Source: an uncultured Pelagibacteraceae bacterium (lineage in GTDB: Bacteria; Pseudomonadota; Alphaproteobacteria; Pelagibacterales; AG-422-B15). Taken from it: DNA of 64,000 nucleotides. The notes under the pieces were generated by a model. That model saw nothing but the letters and a program-made list of their open reading frames with translations, made no database searches and was not told the DNA's origin. Positions 7,425-58,711 of this stretch are shown here, in pieces (the stretch's first letter is position 1; the number at the start of each line of letters is the position of its first letter). The position numbers and the translations under genes are program-made. The stretch spans positions 57,087 through 121,086 of the forward strand of contig CACIQL010000002.1 in assembly GCA_902588785.1 (NCBI GenBank), in the 5' to 3' direction.

Positions 7425-8915
7425 TTACTTAACTTCTATCAATGTAAGTTTTGTTTGAGTATATTGGCCAAGAGCTTCCAGAGATTTGTCTCTTCCAGAA
7501 CCTGACTGCTTGTATCCACCGTGAGGTAAAGACATATCTCCATCGCTCAAACTATTTATCAGAACTTTCCCACTTTTAATTCTTTTTGCAAGCTTGTGTA
7601 CTTTATTTAAATCATTAGACCATATCATTGCATTAAGTCCATAATGAGTATCATTTGCTATTTGAAGAGCTTCATCTTCATTTTCAAAATCTATGGCACA
7701 TAATACTGGTCCAAAAATTTCCTCTTTAGCAACAGTCATTGAATTTTGAACATCTTTAAAGACCGTAGGACTGACATAGTAGCCACCTGAATCTTGAAGC
7801 ACCTGATCACCACCAGTTATAACATTTGCACCTTCAGATTTACCTTTATCTATATAATTCATGATTCTTTCAGTTTGGGTTTTATCGACTATTGAGCCCA
7901 TTAAAGTGTTTGGATCAAACGGGTTACCTGGCATCCAAGGTTGAGAGTAGCTTACGACTTTTTCTAAAAATTCGTCTTTTATCGATTTTTGAAGTAGCAA
8001 CCTTGAGGGCGCATCACATACCTGACCACTGTTTCCAAACATACCATCAGCTGCCATTTTCGCAGCGTGATCTAAATCAGGCGCATCTGCAAATATTATA
8101 TTTGGAGACTTTCCTCCACACTCCAGTGAAACCCTTTTCATGTTGGACTCACCTGCGTAAGATAAAAAATATCTTCCAACTTCAGTAGATCCAGTAAATC
8201 CAAGTTTATCAACATCCATGTGAGTCCCTAATGCTTTTCCTGCAGTAGGACCATAACCTGGTACTACATTGAAGACTCCTTCTGGAATACCAGCCTCCAT
8301 TGCAAGTTCGGCAACTCTTAATGCAGATAAAGGCGATTGTTCTGCAGGCTTTAAAATAAAACTATTCCCAGTTGCTAATGCAGGAGCAAATTTCCAACAA
8401 GCCATTAACAAAGGAAAATTCCAAGGAGTTACTGCTCCAACTACACCTAGAGGTTCTTTTGTGATAGTGGCAATCAAATTATCACTTGTTGGTGCTACAT
8501 CATCATAGAGTTTATCAATTGCCTCAGCATACCATTTTGTACAATTAATACATGCCGCTATATCACCTGTTGCTCTAGTTATAGGCTTACCCATGTTTAA
8601 GGTTTCTAGCAAGCCAAGCTCTAAAATATTTTTTTTCATTAAGTCAGCGAAATTAAAGAGAATTTTTTTTCTTTTTGAAGGAGCCATTCTAGACCATGAC
8701 CCTTTTTCAAATACATCGCGCGCAGCTTTGACAGCTATGTTTATGTCTTCAACGTCACATTCTGAAACGCTAGTTATTATTGATCCATCAACAGGGCTAA
8801 TGCTCTCAAACGTTTTACCTGTTACTGAATTTATATAGTTTCCATTAATAAAAGCCTGATTTTTAAAATCCAGAGATGATTTTTTTTCCATCACATCGTT
8901 TAGAGCGAGAGCCAT
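7425..8915 (-). CDS. NAD(P)-dependent aldehyde dehydrogenase (PuuC / aminoaldehyde dehydrogenase-like)
   Basis: 496 aa. ALDH motifs VTPWNFP, LECGGKSP, catalytic Cys in GQVCDAPSR, EEIFGPV. Confidence 0.9.
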   Translation of the reverse strand: MALALNDVMEKKSSLDFKNQAFINGNYINSVTGKTFESISPVDGSIITSVSECDVEDINIAVKAARDVFEKGSWSRMAPSKRKKILFNFADLMKKNILELGLLETLNMGKPITRATGDIAACINCTKWYAEAIDKLYDDVAPTSDNLIATITKEPLGVVGAVTPWNFPLLMACWKFAPALATGNSFILKPAEQSPLSALRVAELAMEAGIPEGVFNVVPGYGPTAGKALGTHMDVDKLGFTGSTEVGRYFLSYAGESNMKRVSLECGGKSPNIIFADAPDLDHAAKMAADGMFGNSGQVCDAPSRLLLQKSIKDEFLEKVVSYSQPWMPGNPFDPNTLMGSIVDKTQTERIMNYIDKGKSEGANVITGGDQVLQDSGGYYVSPTVFKDVQNSMTVAKEEIFGPVLCAIDFENEDEALQIANDTHYGLNAMIWSNDLNKVHKLAKRIKSGKVLINSLSDGDMSLPHGGYKQSGSGRDKSLEALGQYTQTKLTLIEVK

Positions 8916-53387: not shown

Positions 53388-55169
53388 ATGAGAAAAGATT
53401 CTTTCGACGAAGATTTTTTTTCTCTAACAAATAAAAAATGGTCTTTAAAAGAATATAGCGAAAAAGATACGGAATATATTTCGCAAAGTTACGAAGTAAG
53501 CCCACTAGTTGCGAAATTACTAAGTATTAGAAAAGTAAATTTAGACGATATTATTTCTTATATAAGTCCCTCATTAAAAGAAAGTTTACCTGATCCATAC
53601 GTTTTAGCGGATATGGAAAAAGCCTGCGAGAGACTTTATCAGGCAATAATTAATAAAGAACGAATTGCAGTATTTGGTGACTATGATGTTGATGGCTCAA
53701 CCTCGACTTCGACTTTAATTAATTATTTTAAACAAATTTCAGTGAATCTAAAATTTCATATACCCGATAGATTTAGTGAGGGGTATGGTCCAAGTATTCA
53801 AACCTTTTCAAATTTTAAAAAAAGAGATGTAAAGATCATTTTTACCGTCGATTGCGGAACAATGGCCTTTTCTGAGATTGAATATGCGAGAGAGCAAGGT
53901 ATGGATGTAATTGTCTTAGATCATCACATTCCAGAAATAAAACTACCAAAAGCAACAGCAATTATAAATCCAAACAGAATGGACGATAATTCAGGATTAA
54001 ACTATCTTTCTGCAGTTGGTGTAACTTATATGTTCATTATCGGGCTTAACCGGAAATTAAGACGTGAAGATTGGTTTAAAAAAAATGACTTAAAAGAACC
54101 AAACCTTATTGCTTTGTTAGATCTTGTTGCTTTAGGAACTGTTTGCGATGCTGTTCCACTAAAAGGATTAAATCGAATTCTAGTTTCAAAGGGAATCGAA
54201 GTAATACAAAAACGATTAAATCCAGGTTTAAATTCATTGATTGAAAAATCAAAAATAAAATCAAAAGTAAGTGTTCATGATCTTGGTTTCAAGATTGGTC
54301 CAAGAATTAACGCTGGCGGAAGATTAGGTTTTTCAAACTTTGGCACAGACTTATTAACTGAAAGTGAAAAAAGTAAAATCGATAGTATCTCAAACGATTT
54401 AGATAAATTTAATTCTGAGAGACGTACTATAGAAAGTTATGTTTTAGATCAAGCTATCGCCCAAGTTGATGATAAAAAACTAAAAAATAAACTACTGATC
54501 GTATCTGGTGAAGGATGGCATGAGGGGGTAATTGGTATCATTGCAAGTCGACTTAAAGATAAATTTAATAAGCCTAGCATTGTTTTCTCAATAAATAATG
54601 GTGAAGCTAAAGGTTCTGGACGTTCAATAAAAGGTATTGATCTTGGTCAGTTAGTTATTTCTGCAGTTCAAAGTAATTTGCTTAAAAAAGGCGGAGGACA
54701 CTCAATGGCAGCTGGATTAACAATAGAATCTGAAAAGATAGAAGAATTAGAAAAATTTTTTGAAAAACAATTGACCAATAAAGTAATAAATACTCATGAT
54801 AATAAAATTTTATTTGCTGATGACATTTTAAGTACATCAGCAATCAATTTAGATGTTCATAGGGAAATTGAAAAAATTGGTCCTTTTGGATCAGAGAATC
54901 CTGAACCATCTTTTATTTTTAAAAATGTGATACTCGCGACCGTTGATCAAATAGGTGAGGAGCATTTTAAATGTCTTATTAAATCTGATGGAGGAAAATT
55001 TATTGAAGCGATGGCTTTTAGAAGTGCAAAAACACAGCTTGGAGAAGAATTAATAAAAAATAAGGGTTCATCAGTTTGCTTATTCGGCAAAATAAAGATC
55101 AATGAGTGGGGGGGTAAAAAAATACCTCAAATACATATTATTGATATTTCCGCATCACAAAATAGTTAA
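53388..55169 (+). CDS. recJ: Single-stranded-DNA-specific exonuclease RecJ
   Basis: 593 aa. DHH motifs GDYDVDG and LDHH; DHHA1 motif GGGHSMAAG. Confidence 0.93.
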   Translation: MRKDSFDEDFFSLTNKKWSLKEYSEKDTEYISQSYEVSPLVAKLLSIRKVNLDDIISYISPSLKESLPDPYVLADMEKACERLYQAIINKERIAVFGDYDVDGSTSTSTLINYFKQISVNLKFHIPDRFSEGYGPSIQTFSNFKKRDVKIIFTVDCGTMAFSEIEYAREQGMDVIVLDHHIPEIKLPKATAIINPNRMDDNSGLNYLSAVGVTYMFIIGLNRKLRREDWFKKNDLKEPNLIALLDLVALGTVCDAVPLKGLNRILVSKGIEVIQKRLNPGLNSLIEKSKIKSKVSVHDLGFKIGPRINAGGRLGFSNFGTDLLTESEKSKIDSISNDLDKFNSERRTIESYVLDQAIAQVDDKKLKNKLLIVSGEGWHEGVIGIIASRLKDKFNKPSIVFSINNGEAKGSGRSIKGIDLGQLVISAVQSNLLKKGGGHSMAAGLTIESEKIEELEKFFEKQLTNKVINTHDNKILFADDILSTSAINLDVHREIEKIGPFGSENPEPSFIFKNVILATVDQIGEEHFKCLIKSDGGKFIEAMAFRSAKTQLGEELIKNKGSSVCLFGKIKINEWGGKKIPQIHIIDISASQNS

Positions 55170-55216
55170 TCAATTATTGATTTAGACCGATTATTAGATA
55201 TATAAATAAGGTATAA

Positions 55217-55292
55217 GGTCCCTTCGTCTAGCGGTTAGGATATCTGGTTTTCATCCAGAAGATCACGGGTTCGAATCCCGTAGGGACCGCCA
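55217..55292 (+). tRNA. tRNA-Glu (anticodon UUC)
   Basis: Acceptor GGTCCCT/AGGGACC, anticodon stem-loop TCTGG-TTTTCAT-CCAGA, T-arm ACGGG-TTCGAAT-CCCGT, encoded CCA. Confidence 0.95.
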
Positions 55293-55379
55293 TTTTTATG
55301 GTCTTATCTGTGACAAAATGTCAGTAAAACATCCGTTTTATAGTATTTAATTTCTATAAATAAATATTATCTATTTAGT

Positions 55380-56048
55380 ATGAACGAAATGTTTAAGCAC
55401 TATAAACCGATAAACAATAGTGACCGCATAGCTCTATTATTTACAAAAGCCCTCCGTCTTTTCGCTGATCTTTTCTTTAAAAAACGTTACGGGCACAGAG
55501 CGGTTATATTAGAGACTGTAGCAGCTGTCCCTGGAATGGTCGCCGGCATGCTTAATCACTTAAAAAGCCTTAGAAATATGGAGCAAGATAGAGGCTGGAT
55601 CAAAACACTTTTAGATGAAGCTGAGAACGAAAGAATGCATTTAATGACTTTTATTAATATTGCAAAGCCATCAGTTTTTGAGAGATTTTTAGTGATCATA
55701 GTGCAAGGAATATTTTTTAATCTTTATTTTGTAATGTATTTAGTATCACCTCGTACCTGCCATAGGATTGTGGGATATTTTGAGGAGCAAGCAATTATAA
55801 GTTACACAGAATATTTAGATGAAATTGAAAATGGTAATATTGAAAACGTTAAAGCACCACAGATAGCAATTGATTATTGGGGTTTATCACAGTTTGCAAA
55901 ATTAAAAGATGTTATTATTGCTGTTAGAAACGATGAGATGGGTCACCGTGATGTTAATCATGAATTTGTAACACTTATTGATCAAAAAGACCATAAAGAG
56001 ACTTATACAGATTCAAGGGAAATACTCTCAAAAGATAATACTAAATAA
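55380..56048 (+). CDS. aox: Alternative oxidase (cyanide-insensitive di-iron ubiquinol oxidase)
   Basis: 222 aa. All four di-iron motifs are present: [40 protein letters not shown]. Confidence 0.93.
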
Positions 56049-56055
56049 GATTATA

Positions 56056-56469
56056 ATGTTGGAATTTGGAATTTTTCTACATTCTTTAATTATTGGATTT
56101 ATGATTTTTTTTATGTCTGTTGTAACCCCATCTGTATTTTCAATTTTAAATGAAGATGAGGCAGGCAAGTTATTACGAGTTATTTTCCCCAGAATGTTCA
56201 TTTATGGGTTAATCATTACTATTTTTTCTTGTGCTGTTTTTTTTGTCATTAGTATAATTGATTTTCTGATTATATCGTTGGTTTCCGCTGCTTTCTTTTT
56301 AATCAATCTCATTTATCTAACTCCTAGAATCAATATTTATAGAGATAAATTTAAAGGTGGTATCGTTGAGGCTGAAAAAAAATTTAAAATGCTTCATTTT
56401 TTCTCAGTAGTTTTATTTATTTCACAGCTTTTTGGATCTATCTTTATTGTATTTGTATATTTTTATTAG
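56056..56469 (+). CDS. Four-TM membrane protein, DUF4149/TMEM205-like
   Basis: The start is placed at MLEFGIF, 7 nt after the aox stop (the longer ORF from 55978 overlaps aox). Hydrophobic, with a PSVF...LFP-type pattern. The family assignment is from memory only. Confidence 0.55.
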   Translation: MLEFGIFLHSLIIGFMIFFMSVVTPSVFSILNEDEAGKLLRVIFPRMFIYGLIITIFSCAVFFVISIIDFLIISLVSAAFFLINLIYLTPRINIYRDKFKGGIVEAEKKFKMLHFFSVVLFISQLFGSIFIVFVYFY

Positions 56470-56478
56470 GAGGACAAT

Positions 56479-56661
56479 ATGAAAATTTTAAAAACATTTG
56501 AAGATGCAAAGCTAATTATAGTTGATCTTGAGGTCAATCTAGGTAATCAGAAAAGAAGTGCTCCAACTTTGTGCGCGCAGTATGATGGAAAAATTATTCC
56601 CCTAAGTACAGCTCATGATGGAAGACCTATACTTATGAATATAGATAATGCGATTGAGTAA
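56479..56661 (+). CDS. Hypothetical 60-aa soluble protein
   Basis: Preceded by AGGAGG (56468-56473), 5 nt before the ATG. I recognise no family. Confidence 0.55.
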   Translation: MKILKTFEDAKLIIVDLEVNLGNQKRSAPTLCAQYDGKIIPLSTAHDGRPILMNIDNAIE

Positions 56662-56671
56662 ATAAATTTGC

Positions 56672-58150
56672 TTAGCTTGTATGCTCTCTGATAAAAATTT
56701 CTGCCTTCTGTAGTATTCTTTTCTTTCGATCCTGTTTCATTTTATCAAATACATTTACCATCATATTTAGTCTTGGGTTGCTACTGAAGAATTTTCTATT
56801 TTTATTTATAAATCTCCAATATAAACCATCGACAGTCTCACACCACTCTCCTTTTTTGAAGTCCATCATTTTCAAATAATAGCTTGAACCACAAATATAT
56901 GGTTTGGTTGCGAAGATGCCTCCATCACTAAATAGTCCCATCCCATAGACATTTGGCACCATCACCCATTCAGAGGAGTCAGCAAACATTTCCATAAACC
57001 ATTTATAGACATATTTTGGGTGTATTTCACACAAGTTCATTAAACTAGACAGTATCATTAGCCGTTCAATATGATGCGTCCAACCAAAATTAAGAGCATT
57101 TTTAATTGAATGATCTAAAGGAGGTATACCTGTTTCAGCAGTATACCAATCATTTTTGAGTTTTCTTTTATGATTAAAAAAATTAGATGATTCCATTTTA
57201 GGCGAGTAGTTATGATAAATACCTCTCATAAATTCTCGCCATCCAATAATTTGTCTAATGTATCCCTCAAGTGAATTTATACTTATTTTTCCTTTATATT
57301 TTTTTAATCTATTAATTATTTCTTGGGGTGTAATCAATCCTATATTAATAAGCGGGCTTAATGCGCTATGAAACAGGATATTATCTCTTTGACTTACTGC
57401 GTCTTCGTAGTCTCCAAATAAATTCAGTTTATTTTTAATGAAATCGTCCAGCCAATCTGAAGCATCTTTATGTGTTGTTGGTAGCCAAAAGTTATTTGTA
57501 CTACCAGGGTGTTTTTTAAATTTTTCTTCTATGAAGTTTTTTAAATGTTTTGTGTGTTTGGTTTCACTTGATTTAGGTTGTTTTGGAAGATTTAGGTCTT
57601 GTGGGAGTTTTTTTCTATTATCTTTATCAAAGCTCCATTTGCCACCGACAGGTTTTCCGTTTTCAATTAGTAAGTCAAATTTTAATCTACTTTCTTTATA
57701 ATAAGTTGCCATGAAAGGCTTTTTTTGTTTTGACAGATATTTTTTAAAGTCATCACGTGAATTAAGAAACATAGGTGTTTGTATTACGTTATGCTCAAGA
57801 TTTTTTTGAATAATAAATTTTTTAATACGTTTTTCGAATGGCGTGTCTTCAATTTCAAAGTGGCTTACTTTATTTATTTCATTTTTTTTTATAGATTTTT
57901 CTAATTTATCTTCATACTTTTTTTCAAAATTGTTTTGACAGTCATAATAGTCAACTGAAAAACCTTTCTTTATTAATAAATCTCGGTAACTTCTCATAGA
58001 GGAGAGAAACTGAAGAATTTTTAGCTTATGATGTTTTTCATAAGAACACAGGCCAAGATCCTCACACATGAATATCTTATTCTTTTTATATTTACTTAGA
58101 TGTTTTGGATCAAAAAGCTGATTTCCTAGAATAATAAAAAGATCGCTCAT
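56672..58150 (-). CDS. Cryptochrome/photolyase-family protein (COG3046, CryB/PhrB 'photolyase-related' type)
   Basis: 492 aa. N-terminus LFIILGNQLF is typical of this family. GWREFMRG, WTHHIERLM, and C-terminal KPY..GS.Y...M. Confidence 0.85.
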   Translation of the reverse strand: MSDLFIILGNQLFDPKHLSKYKKNKIFMCEDLGLCSYEKHHKLKILQFLSSMRSYRDLLIKKGFSVDYYDCQNNFEKKYEDKLEKSIKKNEINKVSHFEIEDTPFEKRIKKFIIQKNLEHNVIQTPMFLNSRDDFKKYLSKQKKPFMATYYKESRLKFDLLIENGKPVGGKWSFDKDNRKKLPQDLNLPKQPKSSETKHTKHLKNFIEEKFKKHPGSTNNFWLPTTHKDASDWLDDFIKNKLNLFGDYEDAVSQRDNILFHSALSPLINIGLITPQEIINRLKKYKGKISINSLEGYIRQIIGWREFMRGIYHNYSPKMESSNFFNHKRKLKNDWYTAETGIPPLDHSIKNALNFGWTHHIERLMILSSLMNLCEIHPKYVYKWFMEMFADSSEWVMVPNVYGMGLFSDGGIFATKPYICGSSYYLKMMDFKKGEWCETVDGLYWRFINKNRKFFSSNPRLNMMVNVFDKMKQDRKKRILQKAEIFIREHTS

Positions 58151-58165
58151 AAGTAATTAAAAGAA

Positions 58166-58711
58166 TTAAAGCTGAAGAGCTTTTTCTATTTCACTTATAA
58201 ATTTTTTAGAGGACGGACGAGTTAATGCCGTATAGCCTGCAATTGCATTACCATCTTTGCCTATTATAATTTTATGAAAATTCCACCTAGGAACTCCTCC
58301 GATAAAACCTAATTCTTTTTTGGACCATTTGAAAAATGGATGAGCATCTTTACCTTTGACAACATTTTTTTCTGTAAGTGGAAACGTTATACTAAAAGTA
58401 CTCTCACAAAATTCTTTTACTTCACTATTTGTACCTGACTCTTGATTTCCAAAATCATTTGATGGGACACCCAATACAACCAGACCTTGATCTTTATAGT
58501 CATCATAAAGTTTTTGTAGCCCATCGTATTGATAAGTAAAACCGCATAAACTTGCAGTGTTTACAACGACAAGCGTTTTACCCTTGTAGTCTGACAGGTT
58601 AATCACATCTTCTTCATTAATATCTTTAAAAGAATAACTATATGCATTTTCTGACATTGAGGATCCTGTGTTTAAGAGAAATATAAGGCAAATAGTTAAA
58701 AAAACTCTCAT
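58166..58711 (-). CDS. Glutathione peroxidase (Cys type) with an N-terminal signal peptide
   Basis: 181 aa. VVNTASLCGFT (TGC Cys codon), PSNDFGNQE, WNFHKII. Confidence 0.92.
   Translation of the reverse strand: MRVFLTICLIFLLNTGSSMSENAYSYSFKDINEEDVINLSDYKGKTLVVVNTASLCGFTYQYDGLQKLYDDYKDQGLVVLGVPSNDFGNQESGTNSEVKEFCESTFSITFPLTEKNVVKGKDAHPFFKWSKKELGFIGGVPRWNFHKIIIGKDGNAIAGYTALTRPSSKKFISEIEKALQL

Follow-up and report, generated by a model that had tools for sequence, protein, structure and literature searches.

In a 64,000-nt stretch of DNA from an uncultured Pelagibacteraceae bacterium (contig CACIQL010000002.1, positions 57,087 to 121,086; hereafter the window, with a G+C content of 31.8%), the gene of an alternative oxidase is followed by two short genes, and the question raised by this locus is whether their products are partners of the oxidase. 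The cluster consists of aox (55380..56048, plus strand), coding for an alternative (cyanide-insensitive) ubiquinol oxidase (AOX) of 222 aa, of a gene for a 137-aa four-helix membrane protein of the DUF4149/TMEM205 family (56056..56469, plus strand), and of a third open reading frame (ORF; 56479..56661, plus strand), coding for a soluble 60-aa protein and here named ORF3. The original prediction had proposed that the two downstream genes could be an anchoring, regulatory or assembly module dedicated to AOX. We consider it probable, instead, that DUF4149 and ORF3 are a separate conserved pair and not an AOX subunit, a pair which the SAR11 clade of the window carries immediately after aox. The string of three genes characterises one clade and does not hold for bacterial AOX in general.

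Two sets of loci, individually cited as L with a number, were compared, and genes were counted as nearby when found within 2 kb, at the level of the locus. The set anchored on ORF3 comprises 80 metagenomic loci fetched with an ORF3 profile, being the best-scoring 80 of 312. A DUF4149 gene directly adjoins ORF3 in 49 of these loci, 22 times in the order DUF4149>ORF3 (gaps of 8–14 nt) and 27 times in the order ORF3>DUF4149 (gap of 3 nt). Since the two are adjacent in 49/80 loci and in both orders, and aox is nearby in only 16/80, the conserved unit is DUF4149 plus ORF3. The full string aox>DUF4149>ORF3 was found at 12 loci, those of the window clade, and DUF4149>ORF3 without aox at 10, six of which have upstream sequence long enough to show that aox is absent. 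At the 27 loci with ORF3>DUF4149 the membrane protein is a 129-aa subtype, also a PF13664 member (51.3 bits), and in three of them aox lies divergently, 163–1761 nt upstream. DUF4149 is on neither side of ORF3 at 21 loci, and the last 10 are cut on one side, one of them with a divergent aox at 163 nt. ORF3 was sorted into 19 lineages, and when its sequences are clustered at 88% identity the arrangement follows the lineage: aox>DUF4149>ORF3 belongs to three related clusters, ORF3>DUF4149 to one large cluster in which a divergent aox is at times present, and both DUF4149>ORF3 lacking aox and ORF3 by itself to several clusters each. The DUF4149-ORF3 adjacency extends across 10 of the 19 lineages and through the change in gene order. 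Genes that stay closely spaced neighbours when their order is inverted are the classical sign of what would be a functional, often physical, partnership.

The set anchored on aox comprises 80 loci from species-representative genomes (29 Pelagibacteraceae and 51 other bacteria), fetched with an alignment (A1) of bacterial-length AOX sequences, around which DUF4149 and ORF3 were detected with hidden Markov models built from the SAR11 families of both. ORF3 was found nearby in 3 of the 29 Pelagibacteraceae and in none of the 51 other bacteria. Both genes were present downstream of aox only in L033 (1/80), a Pelagibacteraceae single-cell genome of the window's own species and the best match to the aox locus (96%). 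The other two layouts are divergent: L063 has ORF3 alone 165 nt upstream of aox, and L061 has ORF3>DUF4149 1.8 kb upstream. Together with L127, L144, L176 and L177 they make up the divergent layouts, with distances of 163 to 1761 nt. At the other 26 SAR11 loci aox is followed by various genes, namely hisD, flavodoxin plus MsrB, cupredoxin plus DUF4396, MsrB, LysE, a 2OG-Fe(II) (2-oxoglutarate- and iron-dependent) oxygenase or Flavodoxin_2; where hisD follows it is convergent, and therefore aox stands alone in those loci. Among 117 ORFs flanking the 51 non-SAR11 aox loci, a Pfam scan found no family in more than four ORFs and DUF4149 in one at most; with no recurrent family around it, AOX is thus without a conserved neighbour in bacteria. 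The separation can also be seen within one genome, the single-cell genome AH-287-F15, where aox (76% identical) is on contig 8, followed by LysE, and DUF4149 (54%) and ORF3 (73%) are on contig 2.

The conserved co-localisation with aox that a dedicated module would imply is therefore lacking: 26 of 29 Pelagibacteraceae loci and all 51 non-SAR11 loci are without the two genes nearby, and 64 of 80 ORF3 loci are without aox. As most aox loci lack the pair and most ORF3 loci lack aox, the AOX-dedicated module is not supported as a general rule. What survives from the partner idea is an operon specific to one clade and a recurrent tendency of aox to lie loosely near a pair that is conserved independently of it.

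The oxidase itself matches PF01786 with E=2e-86 and 289.4 bits (cut-off 22.7), over profile positions 10–214 of 216, and is homologous to the trypanosomal AOX of structure 3VV9 (E=8e-49), to which its di-iron ligands align. An alignment with 14 other AOX sequences shows no variation at E45, E84, H87 and E135 and almost none at E186 and H189, so that the four Glu and two His of the LET, NERMH, (L/F)EE and DE..H motifs, said to be intact in the original prediction, are all in place. The gene is thus predicted to encode an ordinary single-subunit di-iron quinol oxidase of a known family, its activity being anticipated from sequence. In the literature library that was searched, no paper names DUF4149 together with alternative oxidase, and papers on SAR11 or Pelagibacter and AOX gave nothing informative on operon partners.

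The 137-aa protein, previously recognised as DUF4149-like with four transmembrane segments, is a bona fide member of this orphan family. Its PF13664 score exceeds the gathering threshold (37.3 vs 24.6 bits), and the AlphaFold2 model (mean pLDDT, the per-residue confidence measure, of 92.6) shows four helices of about 30 residues (2–30, 33–65, 68–100 and 105–136), as expected for DUF4149/TMEM205. A Foldseek search of the model against the PDB retrieved only generic or designed four-helix bundles (E >= 0.66) and was uninformative. Nearly all of its 106 homologues are 137 aa long, which supports the ATG start at 56056 over the longer call of the ORF list, beginning with TTG at 55978 and giving 163 aa. 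Two loops are of interest. The loop 89–112 contains seven Lys/Arg and, by the positive-inside rule, is predicted to be cytoplasmic; this would place on the same face the loop 27–46, which is polar, conserved and carries the invariant residues E33, R41, F44 and P45. With both conserved loops predicted to face the cytoplasm and ORF3 being without a signal sequence, a docking surface for ORF3 on the cytoplasmic side of DUF4149 is plausible. The human family member, TMEM205, is an orphan four-transmembrane protein whose physiological function is not established and which has been tied to platinum-drug resistance (PMC9333335). In fungi, the DUF4149 protein XanD does not contribute to the metabolites of the gene cluster that encodes it, and none of the seven papers found to mention DUF4149 gives it a function.

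ORF3 belongs to no described family: it gave no match in Pfam or NCBIfam, none among PDB sequences (best E=1.4), and its model had no significant neighbour among PDB folds (best E=2.7), in line with the earlier statement that no function could be assigned to it. The AlphaFold2 model (pLDDT 75.6) consists of a beta-hairpin (11–21 and 24–35) plus a short strand. Homologues are abundant, with 355 clusters found by single-sequence search, almost all of 60–66 aa, and 1571 by profile search, the best 120 of which are all close Pelagibacterales sequences. Among the matches listed, identities range from 65 to 98% and those with a name belong to Pelagibacterales or Alphaproteobacteria; the exact ORF3 sequence is present on at least 999 contigs, annotated as a hypothetical protein from a Candidatus Pelagibacterales bacterium, which together with the match of the aox locus to L033 places the window in SAR11. 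The core APTLCxxYxGKIIPLx(S/T)AHDGRPILM is nearly invariant, Cys32, His46 and Asp47 included. Synonymous changes dominate, with a median ratio of non-synonymous to synonymous substitution rates (dN/dS) of 0.08–0.10 in each divergence bin having a proportion of synonymous differences (pS) >0.1 (Nei-Gojobori method, 77 distinct coding sequences, thousands of pairs). By its sequence conservation, then, ORF3 is to be regarded as a real gene under strong purifying selection, an outcome in favour of the original prediction, which would have fallen had the protein not been conserved.

Other identities were tried for the small protein and rejected. Alignment with E. coli CsrA by hhalign gave a probability of 0.12% over 7 aligned columns; FliMN_C, the FliN/SpoA model, matched one of 62 members (E=0.008), and one Joint Genome Institute (JGI) record names an ORF3 homologue FliN; an origin as a phage gene was discarded, viral contigs giving only an 11-residue fragment match.

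The Shine-Dalgarno sequence of ORF3, AGGAGG (56468..56473, plus strand; 6/6 match), overlaps the TAG stop of the DUF4149 gene (56467–56469), in whose reading frame ORF3 also lies, and leaves 5 nt from its end to the ORF3 ATG. It had been called unusually strong for the window, and rightly: a 6/6 match at 3–10 nt spacing is found in front of none of the other 63 ORFs of the window that reach 100 aa, and a 5/6 match in front of only two. The bare word is not enriched in the window (17 observed vs 14.4 expected from shuffles). Whatever the gene arrangement, a match of 5/6 or better to AGGAGG at 3–7 nt spacing is preserved in front of most ORF3 homologues. Being unusual in the window and kept across homologues, the site suggests that ORF3 may be translated more efficiently than its neighbours.

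As for the operon of the window clade, the coordinates, gene calls and gaps of 7 and 9 nt of the original prediction were all confirmed, and a scan of 55100–56900 found no terminator-like sites and no excess of promoter-like sites over shuffles. Because of the short gaps and the missing terminator, co-transcription of the three genes is likely in this clade. The prediction thus stands for its gene calls, the DUF4149 assignment, the Shine-Dalgarno sequence and a real ORF3, and falls for the dedicated partnership with AOX. In the window clade the block persists despite saturation at synonymous sites and differing outer flanks: identities between the window and L015 or L123 are 79–80% for AOX, 52% for DUF4149 and 78–83% for ORF3. 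Facing ORF3, with 10 nt from stop to stop, is a DPRP/photolyase-related gene of 492 aa (56672..58150, minus strand; PF04244, E=2e-57, and FAD_binding_7), whose product is 70% identical between the window and L015 and which keeps its convergent orientation relative to ORF3 across the whole clade with aox>DUF4149>ORF3, also where the outer flanks are not the same. No second copies of the four genes were found within the window. Beyond DPRP, on the minus strand, lies a glutathione peroxidase-like gene (58166..58711), so named from the GSHPx Pfam annotation in L023; the glutathione peroxidase families of NCBIfam match it only below their cut-offs. Upstream, a tRNA-Glu (UUC) gene predicted by ARAGORN (55217..55292, plus strand) immediately precedes the aox leader region, as it precedes aox in the sister-lineage loci L123 and L124.

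Three side observations concern this same block. In the protein collection, one 90%-identity cluster contains both the 222-aa AOX of the window and its 137-aa DUF4149 protein, presumably owing to a chimeric or read-through gene call, such as the TTG-started 163-aa ORF overlapping the 3' end of aox. At L014:3122-4180, on a low-coverage contig (0.18), the same cluster appears with aox and DUF4149 fragmented and ORF3 altered, which is probably an assembly error and not a pseudogene. Finally, in the AOX clade of the window, aox is embedded among photolyase/cryptochrome-family genes, namely DPRP at 56672-58150(-) in the window and, upstream, an FAD_binding_7 protein (L015:1322-2461(-), L034:3917-5065(-)), which hints at a context of light stress.

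A conserved upstream element was found at aox and could be followed across the arrangements. By position weight matrix, the 16-nt element GnCAAnTTTnGCnCAT was located 34–36 nt before the aox ATG at about 24 of 29 SAR11 aox loci (L059:5501-5516, L049:1995-2010, L044:5952-5967 and about 20 further loci); elsewhere in 894 kb of SAR11-like DNA it hardly occurs. The window and its sister lineage, those with tRNA-Glu before aox, carry a variant, CTGTGACAAAATGTCAG in the window (55306..55325, plus strand) and CTGTGACAATATGGCAT in L123; CTGTGACAAAATGTCAG resembles GnCAAnTTTnGCnCAT and contains the inverted repeat TGACA-N3-TGTCA (55311–55323). In the divergent lineage, ACAGATTGTCGCATA is located in the intergenic region shared by aox and ORF3. 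We regard GnCAAnTTTnGCnCAT/CTGTGACAAAATGTCAG as a candidate operator or promoter of aox. It was not found upstream of DUF4149/ORF3 modules without aox, and an operator shared by aox and such modules was accordingly rejected; given that only aox has the element, a common regulon has no evidence in its favour other than physical linkage.

To see in what company the pair is found, the genes within 3 kb of ORF3 were ranked by the number of ORF3 lineages. DUF4149 leads with 10 of 19, followed by AOX (5, one a degraded copy), Flavodoxin_2/FMN_red (5), DPRP (4), a 63–98-aa membrane protein without Pfam match (4), an ABM/HmuQ equivalog (3), and nitroreductase, DoxX and Fe/Mn superoxide dismutase (two each). 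Further neighbours of ORF3 or DUF4149 are flavodoxin, cupredoxin, DUF4396, ferrochelatase with coproporphyrinogen oxidase, P450 and photolyase-like genes. Look-ups of the exact protein showed ORF3 alone beside an ammonium-transporter cluster and, elsewhere, among small ORFs. A theme is common to the surroundings of aox and ORF3, made up of flavodoxins, MsrB, cupredoxin, superoxide dismutase, peroxiredoxin, glutathione peroxidase and photolyase-family genes, and also of HmuQ with nitroreductase, ferrochelatase with coproporphyrinogen oxidase, a UbiH-like FAD monooxygenase and P450.

Several of these neighbours deserve mention in their own right. The ABM-family protein encoded near ORF3, DUF4149 and aox reaches 166.6 bits as an equivalog of the haem-degrading HmuQ (cut-off 130). 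A nitroreductase-family gene directly precedes it in L063 and is about 1.7 kb away in L192; in L063 the two genes resemble a SAR11 pair of haem oxygenase and reductase (positions for these observations: L063:7281-7583(-) and 7588-8151(-), L192:2916-3221(+), L162:6424-6726(-)). The 63–98-aa membrane protein has the core MQILAFMWSGVFSLYIVDSLYVFG and lies near DUF4149, ORF3 and aox in its four ORF3 lineages (L025:6251-6442(-), L122:3394-3690(-), L189:2845-3123(-), L015:2468-2731(-)). Directly before DUF4149>ORF3 in three lineages, that is, in the position held by aox in the window, there is a protein of 431–434 aa with a signal-peptide-like N-terminus, which gave no Pfam or NCBIfam match (L025:3660-4955(+), L189:233-1537(+)). 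In one lineage ORF3 shares its strand with a cytochrome P450 gene on one side (4-nt gap) and the gene of a Sir2-family deacetylase on the other (L131:3193-5436, L184:3695-5930), a string that suggests a different operon for the same mini-protein. In another lineage, at L128:2752-6326, it follows ferrochelatase and coproporphyrinogen III oxidase genes and faces that of a UbiH-like FAD monooxygenase, a context of haem and quinone biosynthesis. DUF4396, another recurrent membrane protein of the aox/ORF3 gene pool, is downstream of aox after cupredoxin in some SAR11 species (L040-L047, L055: aox +680 to +1640) and directly upstream of ORF3>DUF4149 in others (L172:2390-3434).

Putting these elements together, we propose that a two-gene module, comprising a four-helix DUF4149 protein of the inner membrane and a cytosolic, beta-rich ORF3, may have landed directly downstream of aox in one clade, where it would be transcribed from the aox promoter as one mRNA and where the canonical Shine-Dalgarno sequence would boost ORF3 translation. 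The two proteins most likely function as a small complex between membrane and cytosol, in which ORF3 would be on the side of the cytoplasmic loops, and the pair may have a stress-related role. AOX would not need the pair, which would count among the flexible SAR11 genes for redox, haem and oxidative-stress functions that are repeatedly shuffled together, aox included.

If DUF4149 and ORF3 were dedicated AOX accessory factors (anchor, assembly factor or regulator), acting in cis here and in trans where unlinked, the tight operon kept across a clade with saturated synonymous sites would be expected, as would the second, independent layout in which aox and ORF3(>DUF4149) stand back to back across a 163-nt intergenic region; two independent juxtapositions by chance appear improbable with about 19 ORF3 lineages, a 4-kb target and genomes of 1.3–1.4 Mb, by our own reckoning rather than by a program. 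The explanation nevertheless meets the many aox loci without the pair, the 64 ORF3 loci without aox and the confinement of the upstream element to aox, and bacterial and eukaryotic AOX are active as single polypeptides in E. coli, so that we hold it to be quite improbable. A milder version, in which the two genes form an undescribed two-part membrane module within the physiology of AOX (quinol over-reduction, oxygen, haem or iron stress), possibly coupled to AOX as an accessory in the window clade, is unlikely to a slightly lesser degree. At the other extreme, the juxtaposition with aox might be meaningless, flexible genes gathering in the same variable region and the operon being a frozen accident of one clade. 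The wide differences in the gene after aox among SAR11 species and the equally varied contexts of ORF3 would agree with it, but the block has been retained through large divergence, aox recurs near ORF3 in two layouts, and the neighbours, diverse as they are, are not random but have redox, haem and stress functions in common; we judge this explanation rather doubtful.

There is a little more to be said for ORF3 alone being the functional entity, a small soluble factor for haem, iron or oxygen-dependent metalloenzymes with DUF4149 as just one frequent neighbour, though we still find it the less convincing account. At the 21 loci where DUF4149 is on neither side, ORF3 may stand beside ferrochelatase and coproporphyrinogen oxidase, within P450>ORF3>Sir2 (4- and 8-nt gaps) or directly after HmuQ; its Cys32, His46 and Asp47 are invariant, and it is far better conserved than DUF4149 (65–98% vs about 50% identity). 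Against this, DUF4149 is by far its commonest neighbour, and the adjacency survives inversion of order with minimal spacing. As to the possibility that the 60-aa ORF is a chance ORF or the mis-called tail of a neighbouring gene, its shortness and its lack of a database family could be invoked, but 355 to 1571 homologous clusters of constant length, the low dN/dS over thousands of pairs, the conserved Shine-Dalgarno sequence and the identical sequence on so many contigs leave it practically no room, and it was rejected on the numbers of homologues and dN/dS. The separate pair remains our preferred explanation, and three points weigh against it: the window's own clade is over-represented among the 80 ORF3-anchored loci; random placement would put aox near the pair less often than is observed, and it is there in two layouts (co-directional in the window clade, and divergent), so that a loose functional or regulatory link to AOX is possible; and about one third of ORF3 genes are without an adjacent DUF4149, so that ORF3 may not strictly depend on it.

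If no obligatory partner exists for this AOX, its operon mates can be annotated accurately as a separate, widely distributed pair of DUF4149 and a mini-protein, and attention shifts to that pair. It is a new conserved pair in SAR11, the ocean's most abundant heterotroph, and joins an unannotated 60-aa protein to the orphan DUF4149/TMEM205 family, the human member of which is implicated in resistance to platinum drugs. ORF3 is extremely conserved, apparently strongly translated and repeatedly located among haem, flavin, quinone and oxidative-stress genes, offering a concrete start for assigning a function to both proteins. Were the two-part module true, SAR11 would provide the first functional handle on the TMEM205/DUF4149 family, from bacteria to humans.

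Compared with known systems, the AOX of the window is like other bacterial AOX (PF01786), such as those of Novosphingobium aromaticivorans and Vibrio fischeri, in its short length (about 200–230 aa), without the eukaryotic N-terminal extension, and in possessing all di-iron ligands, with about 45–65% identity to other bacterial and eukaryotic AOX; the window clade differs in that aox heads a three-gene string. The membrane protein resembles TMEM205/DUF4149 (PF13664; TCDB 9.A.55.1) in passing the Pfam threshold and in four-helix topology, but is bacterial and encoded beside a conserved 60-aa soluble protein, and no such small soluble partner has been described for TMEM205 or the fungal XanD. 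With the small beta-proteins CsrA and FliN/SpoA, ORF3 shares only size and beta-rich character. The nearest parallel in concept is given by CydX of cytochrome bd and CcoQ of the cbb3 oxidase, which are likewise mini-proteins encoded in the operon of a terminal oxidase. These, however, are single-pass membrane peptides strictly accompanying their oxidase, whereas ORF3 is soluble, beta-rich and usually encoded away from aox.

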